In this document: in pieces, positions 1,865 to 21,521 of the stretch
How the letters are laid out: the number at the start of each line of letters is the position of its first letter
Numbering within the stretch: the first letter of the stretch is position 1
Virus record (IMG/VR): IMGVR_UViG_2645727635_000012
Strand: one strand, 5' to 3'
Length of the DNA: 21,521 nt
DNA from: a virus
Lineage: Duplodnaviria; Heunggongvirae; Uroviricota; Caudoviricetes
Made by a program: the position numbers and the translations under genes
The notes under the pieces: generated by a model
What the model was told of the DNA's origin: nothing
What the model saw: the letters and a program-made list of their open reading frames with translations, nothing else
The model's database searches: none

Positions 1865-3446
1865 TCAGACGCCCCCAGATATCCGCCACAAAGAATGCCT
1901 GCGTCAGCAACTGCCGCAGCGTGTCATCCGGCAGTTCCGGCCATGCTTCCGCCAGTACGTTCATGGCCTCGTCTGCATCCCGGCCTTCCTGTATGGCCTG
2001 CACCAGTGGGGCCACCAGTTCGTTCATCCCCTGCGCGATGGCCTCTGCCGGAAGCTCTGCCCGGTCGATGGCGCGCTGTGCCGGGTCGTCCTCCCCGTTG
2101 TCCTGCTGACTGAGCGCGGCAACATTCAGCCGCTCACGCAGCTGGCTGAGGCCCGCCTGCACAGGGAGACGCTGTGCCACCGGCACCAGTACCTCTTCGC
2201 CGTCTTTCGGGGTGGGGATACCGGTTTTTTTGCGCACCCACGACGCCGGGATATCCTTCATCCCCACACTGTTGAGCAGCACGCTGACGGCTTCCGCCAC
2301 GCCCTTAATGTCGGCTTCCTGCTGCACATCAAACACCAGGCGCGGAAGACGGCGTGACGGGATATCCTGCCAGCCGTTGAGACTGGCCATCATCTGTATC
2401 AGACTGCTGAACATGCCGGACAGCTGGCGTGCATCAGCGGTCAGAATGTCGTGCCGGACCTCGTTATGGACATTACCCAGTGCGTTGGTGGAGGTTTTAC
2501 CGTCGGCCTGGCTGGTCAGCGTACTGCCCAGAATCACTTTTGAGGTGGTACGCTCCGCCCATTCCACCATCGACATGAACGCCTCCGGTCCGCCGGATGC
2601 GGCTTCCTTGAACTCAATCTCGTTACCCTGCGGCAGGGCTGCCACCGCTTCATGCCCCAGATTGACCAGCGCCTCAAGAATGTTATCCCGGTCTTCGTCA
2701 CTGGTGCCCTGTGCATAGTAGGCAATGCGCGCCGGAAGGCCGTAAATCTCCAGAAATTCCGCCATATCACGCAGCGCAAAGTTTTTAAACAGATACGGCC
2801 AGACCAGTACGCGGAACAGGCCGGATGAACCCAGGAACCCCGACCGGGCGTTGTAACGGTGAACCAGCCAGCCGAATGGCCACAATGCGGAACCGTCCTT
2901 ACCGTCTTCCCCACGGTTGCCGTCATCCAGCCGGAGTTCGTCATTGTGTTCCGGCAGGGTAATAAACCAGTTATGCGGGCGCAGCGTCACCGCATCCGGT
3001 AACCACGTTTTATCCACGAACGCCCAGCTGATTTCCTGACAACTGAAGCCATAACCGACACTGGTCATCCCGTTGAGGATGATGTCCTCCATGTCCGGGA
3101 TGCCGTGCAGCCACTCATCCACGGCGGCAGTCAGCTCCTTTTCTGCCTTCGAGGCATTGCGGGGAGGTTCCACCGACCAGTCCAGCGTCAGCAGCGCTTT
3201 TTTGCGCTTTTCCATCTCGGCGAACAGATGACCATCACGCTCTTCCATATCCGCAAACAGCATCGCCTGCGCCGGAAGATAACCGCGTTCGGCTGCTTCC
3301 AGAATGCGCGGCAGTTTTCTGATGTTCAGACCACGGGACGGGTGGTCGGGATAAATGCGCAGCCGTTCCGCCACTCTGACCGACTGCGTGGTTTTGAGTG
3401 CCTCACGTTTCAGCGGGCGTCCGTAAATATCAACAAGCTGTGCCAT
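1851..3446 (-). CDS. Portal protein, Mu gp29-like (DUF935 family)
   Basis: 531-aa ORF directly downstream of large terminase, 4-bp gap; size and position match Mu gp29. Confidence 0.85.
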   Translation of the reverse strand: MAQLVDIYGRPLKREALKTTQSVRVAERLRIYPDHPSRGLNIRKLPRILEAAERGYLPAQAMLFADMEERDGHLFAEMEKRKKALLTLDWSVEPPRNASKAEKELTAAVDEWLHGIPDMEDIILNGMTSVGYGFSCQEISWAFVDKTWLPDAVTLRPHNWFITLPEHNDELRLDDGNRGEDGKDGSALWPFGWLVHRYNARSGFLGSSGLFRVLVWPYLFKNFALRDMAEFLEIYGLPARIAYYAQGTSDEDRDNILEALVNLGHEAVAALPQGNEIEFKEAASGGPEAFMSMVEWAERTTSKVILGSTLTSQADGKTSTNALGNVHNEVRHDILTADARQLSGMFSSLIQMMASLNGWQDIPSRRLPRLVFDVQQEADIKGVAEAVSVLLNSVGMKDIPASWVRKKTGIPTPKDGEEVLVPVAQRLPVQAGLSQLRERLNVAALSQQDNGEDDPAQRAIDRAELPAEAIAQGMNELVAPLVQAIQEGRDADEAMNVLAEAWPELPDDTLRQLLTQAFFVADIWGRLNADS

Positions 3447-3449
3447 TAA

Positions 3450-5108
3450 TTACCATCCTCCTGAACCAAAACGCCCGCCACGGTCACGCCCGGTGCTGCG
3501 TGGGGTGTGTATCTGAAATTTTGCGCTGCGCGATACCGCCAGCGTCCACAGCATGTGCAGACAGTCCGGGCCATCATCGTGGTCGGCTTTGGGGTAGTGG
3601 CGCAGCTGGTCAATCAGCGTCTGATGTGTGTGGCTGATACGAATCAGGCCGTTGGCCATATGCGGCTGAAGGGATTCGATACGCAGTGCCTTATCCTCCA
3701 GCGGGATGACCGGCAGCGCCGGAACCGGCACACCCAGCGCCGCCGAACGCTCAACCAGCACGGTACGCAGAAACTCCTGAAACTGAACGGACTCAAACGA
3801 CCAGCACAGGCAGTGATATTCCCGCTGATACTTAATCACGTCCTCGATAAGTTTATTCGGCAGACGTCGGCGGATATCGGCTTCAACCACATCCAGAATG
3901 CCGGTAAAGCGGTTAAAGCCCCCCACGAGAATGGCCGACGGGTCGCGGTTTTTATTCTTCTTCCCGAGACTGGGGTCAACAGCGCCGTAGAACACCCATT
4001 CATCAAGACGGTTAACCCAGAACTTAATGCAGCCCGCAAACAGCGCATCTTCACCGCTGACCGGGTCGTTCTGGTATTCAGAATCAAAGGTGTCATGACC
4101 GTCACGGACACGAATTTTCATCAGCGCCAGCAGGGGACGCGCCGCCCATGACACCACCGACCCGGCGAGCATCTCAGCCTCGTTCTGTCGGTAAAGTGCC
4201 TCCGCTGCTTCCGGCTGTTTGTTGCGGATGAGTTCTTCCCACTCGTCCCACAGCTTCATGTTGGCAGGCCACTGAATAACGGCCTTAAAGCGGGCCGTTT
4301 TCCACATCGGGTTATTGAGTGTGCGCGACAGTACGGAGTCGTAATGCAGGATGGTCCCGATATAAATAATATCGGTTTTACCGCCAGCCTCACCCAGCGG
4401 CATCACGGTTTTGGTGAGCCAGTCATGCAGCTTGTCGCGCTGCTCCGGGTTACGCACCATCTCGTCGTTCTCGATATCGTCGAGGATGACCAGGTCAGGA
4501 CGGTACGGACCGTGGCGCAGACCACGCAGTTTTTTACCACTACCGGCAACGGTCACCTTGATATTGTTGGCTGTGACGATGGTCCCCATACGCCAGACGC
4601 GACCCTGCCCGCACACCTCCGGGAAATCGTTTTTTAAACGGGGGTTAAATTCCAGTTCAGCCTTGATGGCTTCCAGCATCGGATAAGCCTGGTCGATACT
4701 GTCCATAATGATGACCGGGTAATGCTTAATGGCCCGGATAATGTTCCACAGGGTAAACAGCTGAGTCACCAGCGTGGATTTTGCTTCACCACGAGGCGCG
4801 GCGATGGCGTCGTTCTCCGGGTCCGGGCTTGCCACAACCTGTGGCAGACGGCTGAACAGGTATTTATGCAGCTCACTTTTTGCCGGGTTGCGGACGTAAT
4901 GCGGGAAATAGTTTTCGACAAAATAATCGTAGCCCGTCACCGGGTCGCAGACTGCCGCCCGGCGGGCCTGTGTGGCCTGCGGGTTAACATCGAACCCCAG
5001 ACATTCAGCCTCGATGGTCTGGCGGAGGTTGGCGATGTACTCCTGCAGGCTTCTCTGAAACTCTTTAATGGAAAGTTTACGTTTTGCCACGTCACACCTG
5101 GTATACAA
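3450..5108 (-). CDS. Terminase large subunit, Mu gp28-like
   Basis: 552-aa ORF with ATPase-like segment (DLVILDDIENDE) and nuclease-like C-terminal half; alternative GTG start about 18 nt inside preceded by AGGTG. Confidence 0.85.
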   Translation of the reverse strand: MYTRCDVAKRKLSIKEFQRSLQEYIANLRQTIEAECLGFDVNPQATQARRAAVCDPVTGYDYFVENYFPHYVRNPAKSELHKYLFSRLPQVVASPDPENDAIAAPRGEAKSTLVTQLFTLWNIIRAIKHYPVIIMDSIDQAYPMLEAIKAELEFNPRLKNDFPEVCGQGRVWRMGTIVTANNIKVTVAGSGKKLRGLRHGPYRPDLVILDDIENDEMVRNPEQRDKLHDWLTKTVMPLGEAGGKTDIIYIGTILHYDSVLSRTLNNPMWKTARFKAVIQWPANMKLWDEWEELIRNKQPEAAEALYRQNEAEMLAGSVVSWAARPLLALMKIRVRDGHDTFDSEYQNDPVSGEDALFAGCIKFWVNRLDEWVFYGAVDPSLGKKNKNRDPSAILVGGFNRFTGILDVVEADIRRRLPNKLIEDVIKYQREYHCLCWSFESVQFQEFLRTVLVERSAALGVPVPALPVIPLEDKALRIESLQPHMANGLIRISHTHQTLIDQLRHYPKADHDDGPDCLHMLWTLAVSRSAKFQIHTPRSTGRDRGGRFGSGGW

Positions 5109-18861: not shown

Positions 18862-19413
18862 TCATGCGTTAGTTTCTCCACAGACACAAAACGCCACGAC
18901 GCCCGGAGCTGCACACTCGCGGGCGTTACTCTTTTCTGGAGCGCAGAAGATTTTGTAGACCAGTGCTGCATGCTCCTGGAGCTTCGAAATTGACAGATAC
19001 AACTCATCATTAATTGCTGTCTGCTCGTGTGGCTCCACTACCCCATCTTCGATTGCCGAACGAATCTGCTTTGAGTAACTCCCGATCTGTTCGATGACTT
19101 CCAGCAGGCGCTGGTTTATATCGGCGTTCTCTACTTCCTCAATTTCTGGAAGTGATACAAACACCCCACCAGCAGACTGTGCGACAGCATCCGCAATGTG
19201 GTGAGTACCAGCCGCACGCTGTAAAACCATTGCCCATCCCAACGGAAAAAACTGATCGCCATCGGCACGAAGGCGGTTGAATAAAGCGTTCTCTGTTACA
19301 TCCAGCCACTCAGCAGCTTCAGCGTAACCCCCCGGCAACACCGCGATAGTTTTTCTGACAGCTTTCACGTACCACTCAGGCTGTTTTTCCACTTTCCAGT
19401 GATGCTTACCCAC
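18862..19413 (-). CDS. Hypothetical lambdoid early protein downstream of cro (183 aa)
   Basis: ORF overlapping the cro stop by 8 nt, same orientation. Confidence 0.55.
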   Translation of the reverse strand: MGKHHWKVEKQPEWYVKAVRKTIAVLPGGYAEAAEWLDVTENALFNRLRADGDQFFPLGWAMVLQRAAGTHHIADAVAQSAGGVFVSLPEIEEVENADINQRLLEVIEQIGSYSKQIRSAIEDGVVEPHEQTAINDELYLSISKLQEHAALVYKIFCAPEKSNARECAAPGVVAFCVCGETNA

Positions 19414-19666
19414 GGCTTACCTCCTGTTCCTGTGGTTTTAACTCATTCCGGTTTTGACTAGATTGAAAGCGTGCAGGATAGAGAATCTGCATTTCGCTGA
19501 TTTCTCCCTTAAAAAAATTGGCCAGACGTTCTGCAAGCTCGATAGATGGAATTTGTTCCAGTCTTTCAATACGACTCAGCGTCGCTGGATTGACCTGAAC
19601 GCCCGCAGCAACATGCTGCAAAGTAAATCCGTGCGCCTTACGCACATTCCGTAATGGTGATTGCAT
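19406..19666 (-). CDS. Cro-like helix-turn-helix regulator (XRE family)
   Basis: 86 aa with helix-turn-helix-like segment; divergent from the CI-like gene; GGAGG Shine-Dalgarno. Confidence 0.75.
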   Translation of the reverse strand: MQSPLRNVRKAHGFTLQHVAAGVQVNPATLSRIERLEQIPSIELAERLANFFKGEISEMQILYPARFQSSQNRNELKPQEQEVSRG

Positions 19667-19680
19667 ATAACCTCCACATA

Positions 19681-19743
19681 TTGCGTGATGAGCATATTAT
19701 TTCACGCAAATATTTTGCGCAAGTTGATTTGCTTAACGCGCAA
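19681..19743. promoter_or_regulatory. OR-like operator/promoter region between cro-like and cI-like genes
   Basis: TTGCGTGA...TCACGCAA inverted repeat (19681..19709), palindrome TTGCGCAA (19715..19722), TTGCTTAACGCGCAA (19729..19743); cI-like ATG has no obvious Shine-Dalgarno, so its transcript may be leaderless. Confidence 0.55.
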
Positions 19744-19763: not shown

Positions 19764-20456
19764 ATGAACATAGGAAATCGAGTCAGACAACTTCGCCAGG
19801 CGAAGAACATGAAAATCGCCGATCTCGCTGAAGCAATAGGAGTGGATGCGGCGAATATCTCGCGCCTCGAAACAGGTAAGCAGAAACAATTCACTGAACA
19901 AGCCCTGAGTAATATTGCCAGGAGCTTAGGTGTTGATATTGCTGATCTCTTTACCTCAGACCTCAAAAGTAATACTGTATGTAAAAACAGTATTAGTGAG
20001 GATGTTGCGCAGGTGAAGGATGTATTCCGTATTGAAATGCTGGATGTCAGTGCCAGTGCGGGAAATGGCCTTATCCAGGGCGGTGATGTCATTGATGTGA
20101 TTCATGCCATTGAATACAGAACTGATAATGCTGTATCGATGTTTGGTGGACGACCAGCAAATCACATTAAAGTTATCAACGTTCGTGGGGACAGTATGTG
20201 TCCAACCATTGAGCCAGGAGATCTCATCTTCGTTGATATCAGTATCAATCAGTTTGATGGGGATGGTATATATGTATTTGGTTTTGATGATAAAATTTAC
20301 GTCAAACGACTGCAAATGATACCTGATAAACTGCTGGTAATTTCTGATAATCAGATTTACCGCGAATGGGGAATTACCAGCGAAAACGAACATCGGTTTA
20401 TGGTCTTTGGAAAGGTCTTAATCAGTCAGTCACAAACCCTTAAGCGACACAATTAA
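19764..20456 (+). CDS. CI-like repressor with LexA-type S24 peptidase domain
   Basis: N-terminal helix-turn-helix (IADLAEAIGVDAANISRLETGK); C-terminal S24 signature VRGDSMCPTIEPGDLIFVD with downstream catalytic Lys context (YVKRL). Confidence 0.85.
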   Translation: MNIGNRVRQLRQAKNMKIADLAEAIGVDAANISRLETGKQKQFTEQALSNIARSLGVDIADLFTSDLKSNTVCKNSISEDVAQVKDVFRIEMLDVSASAGNGLIQGGDVIDVIHAIEYRTDNAVSMFGGRPANHIKVINVRGDSMCPTIEPGDLIFVDISINQFDGDGIYVFGFDDKIYVKRLQMIPDKLLVISDNQIYREWGITSENEHRFMVFGKVLISQSQTLKRHN

Positions 20457-20477
20457 CCCCCTACCTCAACATCAATT

Positions 20478-20498
20478 AGCCACCAGAAGGTGGCTTTT
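20478..20498 (+). terminator. Intrinsic terminator after the cI-like gene
   Basis: Stem AGCCACC-agaa-GGTGGCT followed by TTTT. Confidence 0.7.
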
Positions 20499-20511
20499 CA
20501 TTACCCACCAA

Positions 20512-20551
20512 ATTGCATATCTCGCAATAAAAACACTTGCATAATGCGCAA
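20512..20551. promoter_or_regulatory. OL-like operator region downstream of cI
   Basis: ATTGC-atatctc-GCAAT (20512..20528) and TTGCATAATGCGCAA (20537..20551), the latter matching the OR motif at 19729..19743 at 12 of 15 positions. Confidence 0.4.
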
Positions 20552-20976
20552 CTTCATTTTATCTTTCTTTCCAGACCTACAAACAAGGTACTAACAAAAT
20601 TTGGTTGTAACACGGCGTATGGCACATGCGTCGTTAGCGGTCTGGGGACGTTAAAGGGGACAATCCACTCCTTGCTCGGGCAAACAAACCAGGTAGCCGG
20701 AATGTGCAAGTCAATGAGGATGCTGATAAGACGCCTAACCAGCGTGGCGATTCGGTTTGACGCCTGGGAAGAGACCAGGGTGCAACGATGAGGGCATTTA
20801 TGGAACCGCGACAAAGTGTGGTGCCGTAACTGGCTAAGTGCTCTCAGCGTTGTGGTAATCCGCGAAATGGCGCGGCGGTAAGTATGGCGGGGTTATTCCT
20901 TCCCCGTTGAGGACACCGGGTTGTCAGGTTGACCATACGCTTAAGTGACAAGCCCACCACAACAGCCACTGCTTTG

Positions 20977-21022
20977 GCGGTACCAGTTTGTACACTTGCT
21001 TCCGGCTGGTACCGCTCTTTTT
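20977..21022 (+). terminator. Intrinsic terminator in the leader upstream of the 21160 gene
   Basis: Perfect 10-bp stem GCGGTACCAG / CTGGTACCGC with 19-nt loop, followed by TCTTTTT. Confidence 0.65.
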
Positions 21023-21159
21023 ACAAAACAGAGAAGAGCATCACCGGACGACGGGCTCATAACCCAATCCACCCGGGCGGCTGCCACCGCAGGTGTTCTT
21101 CTCTGTTTTGTGGAGAAACCAACCGACCTTGCAGGGTCGATATGATGAGGAGCAGCAAA

Positions 21160-21521
21160 ATGGCTAGCGAACGCAGTACTGATGTGCAGGCATTTATCGG
21201 GGAGCTGGACGGCGGCGTATTTGAAACCAAAATCGGCGCAGTTCTCAGTGAAGTCGCTTCAGGTGTGATGAACACGAAAACCAAAGGTAAGGTCTCACTC
21301 AACCTGGAAATCGAACCATTTGATGAGAACCGTGTGAAAATCAAACACAAACTCTCATATGTTCGCCCGACTAACCGCGGGAAAATTTCCGAAGAAGACA
21401 CCACCGAAACGCCGATGTATGTCAATCGCGGTGGTCGCCTGACTATTCTGCAGGAAGACCAGGGACAATTACTGACTCTTGCCGGTGAACCTGACGGAAA
21501 ACTCCGCGCAGCAGGTCATTA
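21160..21521 (+). CDS. Hypothetical protein, 5' partial (runs off the window end)
   Basis: ATG preceded by GAGGAG Shine-Dalgarno 7 nt upstream; open frame to the window end; not in the ORF track because no stop is present. Confidence 0.6.
   Translation, partial: MASERSTDVQAFIGELDGGVFETKIGAVLSEVASGVMNTKTKGKVSLNLEIEPFDENRVKIKHKLSYVRPTNRGKISEEDTTETPMYVNRGGRLTILQEDQGQLLTLAGEPDGKLRAAGH

Follow-up and report, generated by a model that had tools for sequence, protein, structure and literature searches.

RNA modules in the early-left leader of a lambdoid prophage, with a conserved cloverleaf-like RNA in a tRNA slot

DicF is one of the oldest known bacterial sRNAs. There are also sRNAs that come from the trailers of tRNAs, such as 3′ETS-leuZ in E. 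coli, and the leader of the lambda N gene contains an RNase III hairpin. In the Qin prophage, DicF has been reported to bind Hfq and to be processed by RNase E and RNase III: RNase E makes its 5′ end, and its 3′ end is made either by termination, giving 53 nt, or by an RNase III cut of the readthrough RNA, giving 72 nt (PMC5069750, PMC9438474). Phage HK022 has put, an antiterminator RNA that works in cis by binding RNA polymerase, at the beta-prime zinc-binding domain, and so suppresses terminators downstream. The put RNA consists of two stems in about 70 nt, stands at the start of the transcript and has copies in both early operons (PMC9378689). According to the titles and abstracts of the sources, GOLLD and ROOL are large structured RNAs often found near phage tRNA genes, and YrlA is a bacterial Y-RNA-like RNA (PMC4201824, bioRxiv 2024.12.08.627333).

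Here we present an analysis of the 650-base gap between a phage repressor gene and yfdP in a window of 21.5 kb (the whole stretch of DNA analysed, 21,521 nucleotides). The gap is a chain of RNA modules which, read 5′ to 3′, consists of module U, a 13-nt leader, a 115-nt cloverleaf, a terminator of the DicF family and a 25-bp hairpin, followed by yfdP. It is the non-coding early-left (PL-type) leader of a lambdoid prophage, and over 20572-21160 its folding beats 100 of 100 shuffles (z = -4.1). The features are as follows.

19764-20456: cI-like gene
20478..20500, plus strand: intrinsic terminator of the cI-like gene, AGCCACC-agaa-GGUGGCU then UUUUC (terminator scan, sequence reading)
20513..20551, plus strand: OL-type operators TTGCATATCTCGCAA (20513-20527) and TTGCATAATGCGCAA (20537-20551), from the TTGC-N7-GCAA pattern
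20537-20542 and 20560-20565, plus strand: putative PL, -35 TTGCAT and -10 TATCTT with a 17-nt spacer (sequence reading)
20600..20799, plus strand: module U, a conserved structured RNA of about 200 nt (homology, covariation)
20836..20848, plus strand: shared 5′ leader AAGUGCUCUCAGC, directly before the slot (motif scan, identity in phiV10 and mEp460)
20849..20963, plus strand: cloverleaf-like "tRNA-slot" RNA, 115 nt, four helices and a pseudoknot (covariance model, covariation)
20976..21022, plus strand: DicF-family intrinsic terminator, GGCGGUACCAG, 19-nt loop, CUGGUACCGCU, CUUUUU (folding, sequence reading)
21018..21116, plus strand: long hairpin with a 25-bp stem, arms 21023-47 and 21087-111 (folding)
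21147..21521, plus strand: ribosome-binding site GAGGAG (21147-52) and yfdP-like gene from the ATG at 21160, running off the window end

A sequence-only reading had seen in this region a long, structured leader without coding function, with OL-like operator repeats and an intrinsic terminator ahead of the next gene. Our results bear that description out and set the leader behind a PL-type promoter under repressor control, and every feature listed was found in its place. It had further taken the layout for that of a PL-type promoter with an antitermination or regulatory RNA element; the PL-type leader with elements of regulatory-RNA type stands, while antitermination gained no positive evidence. 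That reading overlooked that its two GC-rich hairpins are part of a single 115-nt pseudoknotted RNA, that a second structured RNA, module U, lies at 20600-20799, and that the whole unit is laid out like a phage tRNA gene.

The covariance-model search against Rfam that had been proposed as a check did not identify a family. Rfam 15 at gathering thresholds gave no match over the entire window, and at E <= 10 the only match in 20400-21300 was a chance one to the hairpin ribozyme (17.5 bits), with nothing for module U or the cloverleaf; on the mEp460 variant, also at E <= 10, nothing meaningful was found. Like GOLLD, ROOL and YrlA, as these appear from titles and abstracts, the RNAs of this leader are phage-borne, structured and non-coding or of unknown function, and they may associate with tRNA genes or mimic tRNA; their sizes and folds seem unrelated to those RNAs, and they have no Rfam match. 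The leader sequences were not found in the papers searched; Faubladier and Bouché 1994 (J Bacteriol 176:1150) or the P1 genome paper may describe a "dicF-like region". A literature search on dicF with antitermination, tRNA-like or readthrough returned nothing relevant. The sRNAs of the Pas sRNA preprint are late-region ones.

Repressor terminator, operators and coding potential

The terminator scan recovered the cI terminator of the sequence-only reading as a hairpin at 20478-20495 followed by TTTTC. The repeats which that reading called OL-like follow the pattern TTGC-N7-GCAA, which occurs three times in the 21.5-kb window, the third time at 19729-19743 in the cI/cro intergenic region. This count alone is not significant, as 8 of 100 shuffles reach 3, and it is through placement that the operator assignment becomes convincing. 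The candidate PL is weak, agreeing with the consensus at 7 of 12 positions, and was not called by the promoter scan; transcription would start near 20572. Because phages with other repressors share sequence with the window only from about 20593, the immunity region ends near this candidate promoter.

The region is non-coding, in agreement with the earlier statement that it holds no convincing ORF. The longest ORFs between the cI-like gene and the ATG at 21160 have 84-86 amino acids, and these either overlap each other, on different strands, or begin, like the 84-aa plus-strand ORF, before the point where transcription probably starts. RefSeq has no feature under the cloverleaf in K-12 or O157. 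That one or more small proteins are nevertheless encoded here, by the 66-aa plus-strand ORF at 20945-21145 or by the minus-strand ORFs annotated in mEp460 and cdtI, we regard as most improbable. Several phage records do annotate hypothetical proteins at this place, and in the hairpin region the PHROG profile phrog_33599 matches the plus-strand ORF (E = 6e-18) and phrog_3651 a minus-strand ORF of 48 aa (E = 2e-27). These two matches, however, are opposite strands of the same palindromic DNA, and the phrog_3651 profile has 162 residues against the 48 aa of the window ORF, despite DNA about 98% identical to that of relatives. Annotations of near-identical phages disagree on which ORFs are present and on which strand, a Pfam search of the leader ORFs gave no match, and the variation that is observed is of the RNA type, with compensatory pairs.

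Two conserved and covarying RNA structures

Module U is a conserved, covarying RNA structure. It is 78-88% identical to the ban-operon sequence of P1, P7 and D6-type elements, where its counterpart begins 2 nt after tRNA-Ile, and to the epsilon15-like phages phiV10 and Tyrion. A long-range pairing (20614-16/20710-12, 20622-27/20702-07, 20631-33/20698-20700 and 20637-44/20690-97) is followed by hairpins at 20731-45 and at 20763-79, the latter with the loop GAAGAGA. In the module U alignment (A8), its 27 pairs are 99% paired and 7 of them show compensatory changes, a covariation score that none of 500 shuffles reached.

The two GC-rich hairpins of the sequence-only reading, at 20860-20875 and 20888-20906, are real and turn out to be helices P1 and P2b of a larger conserved structure. 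This cloverleaf is closed by helix P0 (20849-56/20956-63), which encloses the P1 hairpin (20860-75), P2a (20876-79/20915-18) with the P2b hairpin, and P3 (20919-29/20939-53), and a pseudoknot joins UAUGG (20883-87) to CCAUA (20933-37). The covariance model matches the window with 141 bits. An alignment of 72 distinct sequences (A7) shows that the structure is conserved and covaries: over 38 pairs, pseudoknot included, 95.7% of the pair cells are standard and 14 pairs are compensatory, while none of 500 shuffles reaches any of these measures and slid controls pair at 32-55%. In Izhakiella, for example, GGGUAACCA/UGGUUACCC stands against GGGUUGUCA/UGACAA(G)CCC in the window, and in phage P1 the pseudoknot reads CAUGG/CCAUG and P2b reads CUGGG/CCCAG. 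Because of the pseudoknot, single-sequence folding of the cloverleaf core is uninformative (z = -0.7), and the structure comes from the comparative data only.

Some pairings and loci were tried and rejected. The P1 loop, AAAUGG, was considered as the partner of CCAUA; its 6 nt vary freely (ACAGG, AAACGG, AAAUGA), whereas UAUGG in the P2 internal loop covaries. An extension of the pseudoknot by UAAG/CUUA has an A-C mismatch in more than half of the sequences. About half of the 39 loci of a genome-collection scan were chance matches in GC-rich genomes; all of those that were scored were rejected by the covariance model, and the rest were dropped on reading their sequences.

The DicF-type terminator, the long hairpin and the Qin locus

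The strong terminator of the sequence-only reading has a perfect 10-bp stem (20977-20986/21006-21015) followed by UCUUUUU and folds with -21.5 kcal/mol (z = -3.1); owing to its 19-nt loop it escaped a simple terminator scan. The trailer between it and the cloverleaf is about 12-13 nt in the window. A terminator follows the cloverleaf almost invariably, lying 25-125 nt 3′ of it in 125 of 128 copies, and is mostly DicF or a variant with UUGGCGG...CCGCC-UUUUU; differing terminators follow the element in P1 and P7 (GCCCAUCUUCGGGUGGGCG) and, of yet another kind, in Salmonella F1055.

A complex conserved fold in a 5′ leader, with a terminator close behind, might suggest a riboswitch-type attenuator, in which the cloverleaf would sense a ligand, a protein or a tRNA and its fold would decide whether the terminator forms. 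The invariant GGCGGUA of the cloverleaf recurs in the 5′ arm of the terminator stem (GGCGGUAYCAG) and might pair with the 3′ arm in its place. Nonetheless, we judge this very unlikely: the terminators of P1/P7, of F1055 and of the DicF-type copies are unrelated in sequence, no alternative pairing is conserved, the spacing between cloverleaf and terminator varies over the range given above, the slot can hold a tRNA, and no Rfam riboswitch matches.

The option of an sRNA, which the sequence-only reading had left beside the others, gains support from homology with the Qin dicF locus (ydfC-dicF-dicB). Over 107 nt (20849-20955), the cloverleaf core shares 97% identity with Qin sequence directly before dicF, ending about 25 nt short of that gene, and both loci have, in order, a repressor-controlled early promoter, the structured element, a short trailer, a GGCGG-type terminator, a long-range stem and the first gene. 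The window terminator carries the UUUGGCGGUAYCAGUUU of the DicF stem; the Rfam DicF model itself (RF00039, gathering 48 bits) has no match in 20400-21300 even at E <= 10, whereas Qin, as the positive control, scores 76.7 bits. Unlike Qin DicF, the window lacks the 5′ arm UUUCUGGUGAC and the loop that pairs with ftsZ. We looked for this pairing (AGUUUUACUCCG with CGGAGAGAAACU), and the window loop, GUUUGUACACUUGCUUCCGG, has no CUCCG; with the ftsZ initiation region it forms at best a scattered duplex of -11.9 kcal/mol, as against -16.9 kcal/mol for DicF. Duplex folding of the full-length candidate sRNA with ftsZ did not discriminate, shuffles being equally good, and the loop-only comparison was used instead. 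Before the element, Qin has the three small genes ydfABC where the window has module U, and the downstream gene is dicB in Qin and yfdP in the window. The K-12 annotation is blank over the 340-nt untranslated stretch before dicF; this stretch holds a conserved, covarying, pseudoknotted RNA in a slot that real tRNAs occupy in related phages. The terminator hairpin of the window is a candidate source of a hairpin sRNA of about 50 nt. Such a hairpin-only RNA from the window trailer may not be a functional sRNA.

The 13-bp inverted repeat that had been reported before the ribosome-binding site is real and longer than claimed, with arms of 25 nt at 21023-21047 and 21087-21111 that are 84% complementary. 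The hairpin at 21018-21116 folds with -48.2 kcal/mol (z = -7.1), overlaps the U-tract of the terminator and may serve as an RNase III site when transcripts read through. It resembles the RNase III hairpin of the lambda N leader in being long and almost perfectly paired and in standing between the leader elements of the early-left operon and the first gene's ribosome-binding site; unlike that hairpin, it leaves the ribosome-binding site uncovered, 30 nt downstream. Directly behind DicF, a comparable long-range stem pairs AGUGAAUUUUGUGAUG with CAUCACAAAAUUCAUU in Qin, and RNase III reportedly generates the 3′ end of the 72-nt form there (PMC5069750). STnc100 and PasD are prophage sRNAs; the Qin stem gives a sub-threshold STnc100 match of 34 bits, and the window hairpin does not match STnc100 at E <= 10. 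Homologues of the downstream gene are named YfdP in RefSeq and phage annotation and are followed by YfdQ/DUF2303; no Pfam domain was found in the first 120 aa of the YfdP-like protein.

A slot shared with tRNA genes

The helices P0, P1, P2 and P3 follow one another in the order of the acceptor, D, anticodon and T arms of a tRNA. By any sequence criterion, however, the cloverleaf is not a tRNA: P0 has 8 bp with no CCA after it, where a tRNA has a 7-bp acceptor stem plus NCCA; there is no T-loop motif (GTTCRANYC), the P3 loop being UGACCAUAC; the P2b loop has 9 nt against 7 in an anticodon loop; and ARAGORN found no tRNA anywhere in the window. Phage phiV10 has module U, the identical leader, a tRNA-Arg(UCU) that starts inside GUUGUGG, and then a DicF-like terminator, and tRNA-Arg(UCU) occupies the identical slot there and at 14 distinct viral-contig loci. 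In mEp460 and phiSTEC1575, with flanks about 99% identical to the window, a different RNA lies between GUUGUGG and CCACAAC. Among viral contigs, the motif AGTGCTCT-N3-CGTTGTGG stands before 121 distinct cassettes, which hold 21 cloverleaves, 36 alt-type RNAs, 14 tRNA-Arg, 19 others with a canonical T-loop motif and 31 others. The slot of the cloverleaf is thus equivalent to the slot of a real tRNA in related phages.

Compared with the tRNA-Arg(UCU) gene of phiV10, the window has the same cassette, with module U, AAGUGCUCUCAGC, a slot from GUUGUGG onwards and a DicF-like terminator; its four helices are ordered as in a cloverleaf, the closing one being acceptor-like, and its terminator and trailer take the place of the tRNA 3′ external spacer. 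Unlike phage tRNAs, the cloverleaf lacks the T-loop and D-loop consensus, the 7-nt anticodon-type loop and the CCA, it is 115 nt long instead of 76, and its tertiary contact joins the P2 internal loop to the P3 loop by a Watson-Crick pseudoknot. The best reading, to which we give about even odds (roughly 50%), is that the unit is an immediate-early stable-RNA gene laid out like a phage tRNA gene and placed in the early-left leader. The weak promoter, the cloverleaf without tRNA hallmarks and the trailer without the DicF 5′ arm speak against it.

For this stable-RNA gene we infer the promoter and start site, partial termination, the nucleases with their cut sites and the stability of the products. 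Once the cI-like repressor leaves both operators, RNA polymerase would start near 20572 and transcribe, in order, module U, the short leader and the 115-nt pseudoknotted RNA in the slot that in phiV10-type units holds tRNA-Arg(UCU). The DicF-family terminator would stop part of the transcripts, giving a primary RNA of about 450 nt. By analogy with the Qin dicBF leader, where RNase E makes the DicF 5′ end, RNase E would cut the trailer; a further cut, by RNase P at the acceptor-like P0, may occur but is uncertain because P0 has 8 bp and reaches into what is single-stranded leader in a true tRNA. Processing would yield a stable cloverleaf RNA together with a terminator-hairpin RNA of about 50 nt. 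Polymerases that read through would form the 25-bp hairpin at 21018-21116, an RNase III-type substrate, and continue to yfdP, yfdQ and the other early-left genes.

The cloverleaf could be either a cis-acting processing module or a trans-acting tRNA mimic. As a mimic, the excised cloverleaf and the other slot RNAs would act in trans to decoy or hijack host proteins that bind tRNA, and might be aimed at anticodon nucleases and other defences that attack tRNA, at enzymes that modify or process tRNA, or at proteins of the Ro/Rsr type. We consider this rather unlikely; it is compatible with the stable-RNA gene and does not exclude it. Equivalence with the slot of a real tRNA, the four helices in cloverleaf order and the long-range loop contact favour it, as do the sister cassettes, many of which keep canonical D-arm and T-arm sequences but carry large insertions. 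Of 118 alt-type RNAs, 14 lie within 500 nt of a tRNA gene, mostly on the same strand, against about 4 expected, and in one P1-like plasmid the same operon holds the gene for Tad2 (Thoeris anti-defence) beside module U. The immediate-early position fits as well, in that a mimic role would explain why the RNA is made first, from an early promoter. On the other hand, excision, stability and a protein partner would all have to be supposed, and the cloverleaf has lost every sequence hallmark of a tRNA. True tRNA mimics would be a new class of immediate-early phage effectors.

Processive antitermination of the put or nut kind would assign the same RNA a role in cis: the nascent cloverleaf or module U would bind RNA polymerase in place of the missing N, perhaps with Nus factors recruited through the boxA-like UGCUCUC, and the polymerase would pass 21022 and later terminators. 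No N-like gene lies between the promoter and the first ORF, a strong terminator precedes all early-left genes as one follows nearly every copy of the element, and in P1 and P7 the element directly follows the C1-controlled Pban of a long operon. The units of the window, mEp460, phiV10 and Tyrion all have module U, which also stands before ban in P1. The string UGCUCUC at 20839-20845, within the leader AAGUGCUCUCAGC, agrees with UGCUCUU at 6 of 7 positions in our boxA test (CGCUCUUA or UGCUCUUUAACA), and in most lambdoid copies of the cloverleaf UGCUCU(U/C) precedes P0 by a constant distance; a UGCUCUU-like string also has a fixed position in 25 of 112 alt-type copies. Like HK022 put, this is a structured RNA followed by terminators in the early-left leader of a lambdoid phage without an N gene, and there is a short similarity between putL GCGCGGCGGGUUCAGGAUGAAC and the window GCGCGGCGG...GGGUUGUCAGGUUGACC, of the form GCGCGGCGG...GGUU(G)UCAGG(A/U)UGA.

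Even so, antitermination appears unlikely to us, and put-like antitermination is not supported. The same slot, leader, terminator type and layout hold tRNA-Arg in phiV10 and an unrelated RNA in mEp460, so readthrough in those phages cannot depend on the cloverleaf, and the boxA-like string is also the 5′ leader of the phiV10 tRNA-Arg. Four helices and a pseudoknot contrast with the two-stem put RNA, the covariance model finds nothing in the HK022 immunity region, and the window RNA lies about 280 nt from the start, in a slot interchangeable with tRNA. Unlike HK022, with putL and putR, the window has a single copy: a covariance search with filters off found no second one, behind the right-operon promoter or elsewhere, in the 21.5 kb, which take in the cro side and about 19 kb beyond it. 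A polymerase-modifying RNA would be the second kind of RNA-only antiterminator after put.

Membership in the put family was itself a rejected candidate: with putL and putR located by eye in HK022, only a short GC-rich similarity was seen and no covariance-model match. The boxA/nut idea was weakened by finding the same leader before a real tRNA. A 15-nt boxB hairpin with a GNRA-like pentaloop and an arginine-rich N encoded closely behind it were looked for and not found: the P1 loop is unconstrained and has 6 nt, no ORF lies between the promoter and yfdP, and the N-terminus of the YfdP-like protein (MASERSTDVQAF...) is not arginine-rich. Two further points count against the stable-RNA gene. A dedicated antiterminator would explain more simply a strong terminator before all early-left genes of a phage without an N-like gene. 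In P1 and P7, where the shared leader is missing and P0 pairs poorly, the Pban start is 20-30 nt upstream of the element, a position that looks more like that of a promoter-proximal regulatory element than of a tRNA-type gene.

A wider reading, which we put forward tentatively and think doubtful as a whole, would place these RNAs in a superfamily of "tRNA-slot" RNAs of 90-220 nt that replaced the tRNA in a conserved cassette, made of module U, the leader AAGUGCUCU, the acceptor-like stem GUUGUGG/CCACAAC and the DicF-type terminator. The superfamily would be enterobacterial and, through the alt-type frame (141 phage records and at least 120 loci in the viral-contig scan), would extend to many other phages, with the window cloverleaf as one highly derived class. 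Its RNAs would be excised by the tRNA-processing machinery and serve in early infection as tRNA mimics, for example as decoys or hijackers. DicF would then be the 3′ trailer and terminator of a tRNA-slot gene, and a version of the leader, mostly its cloverleaf segment, would stand unannotated directly before dicF in most E. coli genomes. This gives a testable account of the origin and processing of DicF-type sRNAs, in which they would derive from tRNA-like genes as their trailers. Two RNA motifs without an Rfam family, the cloverleaf and module U, are defined here, and the alt-type frame is a third, much more widespread. Some part of the leader is matched in 4786 of 5426 complete E. coli genomes; among the rows sampled, the commonest partial match is the cloverleaf segment, which lies beside dicF and dicB in the two loci examined.

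The repressor-proximal leader

The window, a lambdoid prophage of the SfV / e14 / mEp460 / cdtI type, has a gene-free stretch of about 700 bases after its cI-like gene.

Genes around the leader
19406-19666, minus strand: cro-like gene
19764-20456, plus strand: cI-like repressor gene, LexA/S24-type
21160 (start): yfdP (RefSeq name), with yfdQ next in relatives

The early-left operon is oriented like the repressor gene, an arrangement also found in lambda, and the leader therefore occupies the place of lambda PL, nutL and N. The sequence-only reading had placed a structured non-coding leader with OL-like operator repeats here, downstream of a cI terminator, and both signals are borne out: a terminator scan returns a hairpin at 20478-20495 followed by TTTTC, and the window has just three copies of TTGC-N7-GCAA, at 20513, at 20537 and, in the cI/cro intergenic region, at 19729. 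The best promoter candidate, TTGCAT-17-TATCTT (20537-20565), shares bases with the second operator and would place the transcription start near 20572; it is weak by consensus. From about 20593 on, many phages with other repressors (cdtI, Ayreon, 2H10 and Stx2c phages among them) share the leader at 97-99% identity, so that the immunity region ends about 20 nt into the putative transcript.

The leader region is non-coding. It contains no convincing ORF, as had been noticed earlier; the longest reach 84-86 aa and overlap on opposite strands, and ORF annotation differs, strand included, among near-identical phages. Translations of the palindromic hairpin DNA (20941-21145) hit two PHROG families of unknown function (phrog_33599, phrog_3651), and the profile of one has 162 residues against a 48-aa ORF in the window; both families probably stem from over-called ORFs on conserved non-coding DNA. 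A protein-coding leader is unlikely, because these matches, like the longest ORFs, fall on opposite strands and a Pfam search of the leader translations gave no match.

A cloverleaf RNA ahead of a terminator

Two RNA structures with covariation lie in the leader. One is a pseudoknotted RNA of 115 nt with four helices (20849-20963), here called the cloverleaf, whose structure was derived from variants in 120 viral contigs and from genome matches; the two GC-rich hairpins seen by the sequence-only reading, at 20860-20875 and 20888-20906, reappear as its P1 and P2b.

Elements of the cloverleaf
P0: 20849-56 with 20956-63
P1 hairpin: 20860-75
P2a: 20876-79 with 20915-18
P2b hairpin: 20888-20906
P3: 20919-29 with 20939-53
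Pseudoknot: UAUGG 20883-87 with CCAUA 20933-37 (P3 loop)

A covariance model was built and 72 distinct sequences were realigned to it; in this alignment, which is fitted to the model and holds many closely related members, the 38 pairs are 95.7% paired and 14 of them show changes on both sides. None of 500 shuffles reached any of five measures, pairing falls to 32-55% when the partners are slid by 1-3 columns, and P1, P2a, P2b and P3 were proposed independently by RNAalifold. Compensatory changes occur in P3 (GGGUAACCA/UGGUUACCC in Izhakiella, GCCA/UGGC in phages P1 and P7), in P2a (C-G in phage P7 versus U-A in others) and in the pseudoknot (CAUGG/CCAUG in phage P1), and P2b is found as CUGGG/CCCAG, CAGGUG/CACCUG and CCGGG/CCCGA; helix P1 has one-sided changes only, and P0 is poorly paired in the P1/P7 phage group. 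A single cloverleaf sequence does not fold significantly better than its shuffles, as expected of a pseudoknotted RNA. An Rfam 15 search gave no match for it.

Some part of the leader is matched in 4786 of 5426 complete E. coli genomes; in the rows sampled, the partial match seen most often is 20849-20955. In K-12 this segment lies in the Qin prophage between ydfC and dicB, ends about 25 nt before dicF and carries no annotation in RefSeq or the curated MG1655 record; judged by sequence, the cloverleaf is a homologue of this stretch upstream of dicF. In phages P1 and P7 the element sits 20-30 nt downstream of the C1-controlled Pban start, where the record marks a 'dicF-like region', and further carriers are Salmonella phage F1055, a phage deposited as Actinobacillus phage, and prophages of Citrobacter, Trabulsiella, Erwinia, Izhakiella and Serratia. 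The deposited Actinobacillus phage (L008, vB_Apl-pPE4; cloverleaf match 84% identical) has an immunity region with a DicA-like repressor, YdaT toxin, Kil and exonuclease VIII; this region and the cloverleaf with its DicF-like terminator both look typically enterobacterial, and the host assignment may be questionable or a recent transfer may have taken place. Metagenome-assembled genomes of the non-enterobacterial taxa Veillonella parvula (L154), Collinsella (L159) and Bacillota (L152) hold E. coli-type or P1-type cloverleaves identical to the E. coli versions; contigs of Enterobacteriaceae prophages or plasmids that contaminated the bins are the most likely source.

The cloverleaf almost always has a terminator behind it: a hairpin with a U-run follows within 25-125 nt in 125 of the 128 copies with enough downstream sequence. 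Most of these terminators are DicF itself, others have in common UUGGCGG...CCGCC(C)UUUUU with different loops, and that of phages P1 and P7 is unrelated in sequence; a riboswitch is unlikely, since the terminators after cloverleaf copies differ. The intrinsic terminator noted in the window is real, with a perfect 10-bp stem (20977-86 with 21006-15) followed by UCUUUUU (-21.5 kcal/mol, z = -3.1). It shares UUUGGCGGUAYCAGUUU with DicF but has neither the DicF 5' arm nor the loop pairing with the ftsZ ribosome-binding site, and it is not matched by the Rfam DicF model (76.7 bits on Qin), which rules it out as DicF itself; it is a DicF-position hairpin. The 13-bp inverted repeat noted beyond it proves to be the core of 25-nt arms (21023-47 and 21087-111) in a hairpin at 21018-21116 (-48.2 kcal/mol, z = -7.1), whose 5' arm includes the terminator U-tract, so that it would form only in readthrough RNA. 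Qin likewise has a long-range stem directly after DicF, AGUGAAUUUUGUGAUG with CAUCACAAAAUUCAUU, with a sub-threshold STnc100 match (34 bits), and RNase III reportedly creates the 72-nt form of DicF there (PMC5069750). By analogy, the window hairpin may be processed by RNase III.

A slot shared with tRNA

The cloverleaf stands in a slot, directly after a 13-nt motif (20836-20848), that is equivalent to one occupied by a tRNA. In phiV10 the order is module U (the second structured RNA of the leader), the identical motif AAGUGCUCUCAGCGUU, tRNA-Arg(UCU), a DicF-like terminator and a small gene; the tRNA is bona fide, and its acceptor stem begins within GUUGUGG. On both flanks of the slot, phages mEp460 and phiSTEC1575 match the window at about 99% identity, and they carry a different sequence of ~120 nt, the alt-type RNA, between GUUGUGG and CCACAAC. 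A scan for the motif gave 121 distinct copies.

Cassettes after the motif (distinct copies)
Cloverleaf: 21
Alt-type RNA: 36
tRNA-Arg: 14
Other, with canonical T-loop motif: 19
Other: 31

Several T-loop-motif cassettes also keep the D-arm and have large insertions. Since the slot is shared and GUUGUGG...CCACAAC-like stems close nearly all cassettes, P0 is the counterpart of the tRNA acceptor stem. The four helices of the cloverleaf follow in tRNA order, but it has no T-loop and no CCA, its P2b loop is 9 nt, and ARAGORN calls no tRNA there; these sequence criteria rule it out as a tRNA.

At least a dozen further cassette types lie behind AGUGCUCU-N3-CGUUGUGG with CCACAAC-like closing strands (viral loci L293-L374), some with canonical D-arms and T-arms and insertions of 50-100 nt, others without any tRNA hallmark; L319 has a chimera-like look, with a P3-like CCAGGUUGACCAG loop.

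The alt-type RNA has near-invariant ends, GAAUGCGCAGGCUGAUGCGC on the 5' side and GCCGGAGAUCAGCRCCGGCC on the 3' side, around a variable middle of 40-170 nt, and its closing stem covaries. The loops of its two hairpins, GGCUGA and AUCAGC, are complementary to each other, and a kissing contact between them is possible. It is matched in 141 phage records, with at least 120 loci in the viral-contig scan, in hosts including Klebsiella, Aeromonas, Pseudomonas and Stenotrophomonas and also in T1-like phages and HK620 (L001, mEp460, about 3414-3548; L169, HK620, 1501-1590; L170, HC6, 1501-1630; L171, RCS47, 1501-1635; viral loci L172-L288). A tRNA gene is found no more than 500 nt from it in 14 of 118 cases versus about 4 expected, a moderate enrichment, and an Rfam search with this RNA gave no match.

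Module U (window 20600-20799; L006, phage P1, 5266-5470; L289, L290, L291, L292) precedes the slot motif in about 40% of surveyed copies. It is 78-88% identical to P1, P7 and D6-type phage-plasmid sequence running from 2 nt after tRNA-Ile to ban, and is similar in some Klebsiella phages and in epsilon15-like phages, where a small divergent unit lying between terminase and portal genes begins with it. Its 27 predicted pairs reach 99% pairing across 15 diverged sequences, with compensatory changes in 7 of them (CCUGG/CCAGG versus CCUCG/CGAGG and GCCGG/CCGGC; UCUG/CAGG versus UCCG/CGGG), and no shuffle reached its covariation score; an Rfam search gave no match for it. In the P1-like plasmid p1_000533 (L290, 2954-3529), a Thoeris anti-defence Tad2 family gene directly follows module U at the place of ban in P1, and accessory or anti-defence cargo is apparently exchanged at this part of the operon.

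The literature searched contains neither cloverleaf nor module U sequences. The conserved 'dicF-like region' may already be covered by Faubladier and Bouché 1994 and by the P1 genome paper. A catalogue with 10,006 candidates for structured viral RNAs mentions one that 'only sometimes' overlaps tRNA-Arg (PMC10690425), which could be this locus. Because of these older papers and this candidate our claim to novelty is limited: neither Rfam 15 nor the RefSeq and K-12 annotation has the motifs, and the tRNA-slot relationship was not found in the literature searched.

A proposed processed stable RNA and its rivals

We propose, with about an even chance that the whole scheme is right, that the PL leader is a processed stable-RNA gene. 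Upon loss of repressor, PL would transcribe module U and the cloverleaf first, and polymerases would stop in part at 21022; the RNA of ~450 nt would be cut in its trailer, as RNase E does for DicF, possibly with an additional cut at P0 by RNase P, to give the cloverleaf as a stable RNA, along with a hairpin RNA of ~50 nt. Readthrough RNA would be cut in the 25-bp stem, with yfdP and later genes expressed. A cloverleaf acting in trans as a tRNA mimic is compatible with this scheme. Instead, the leader RNA might act by antitermination, as put (of HK022) or nut does, in an operon that is blocked by a strong terminator and has no N gene; we regard this as doubtful, because the same flanks also hold a plain tRNA or an unrelated RNA in the slot, the cloverleaf fold is unlike put, and a second copy was not found on the cro side. 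Were antitermination at work, module U would be a better candidate than the cloverleaf.

In Qin of K-12 (L003, 4196-4336), GUGGUGAAUGCGGCUGAGCGCACGCGG stands directly after DicF, inside the stem with the STnc100 match, and is similar to a further slot-cassette type, present in L301 and L361; Qin may thus hold two tandem cassette remnants around DicF.
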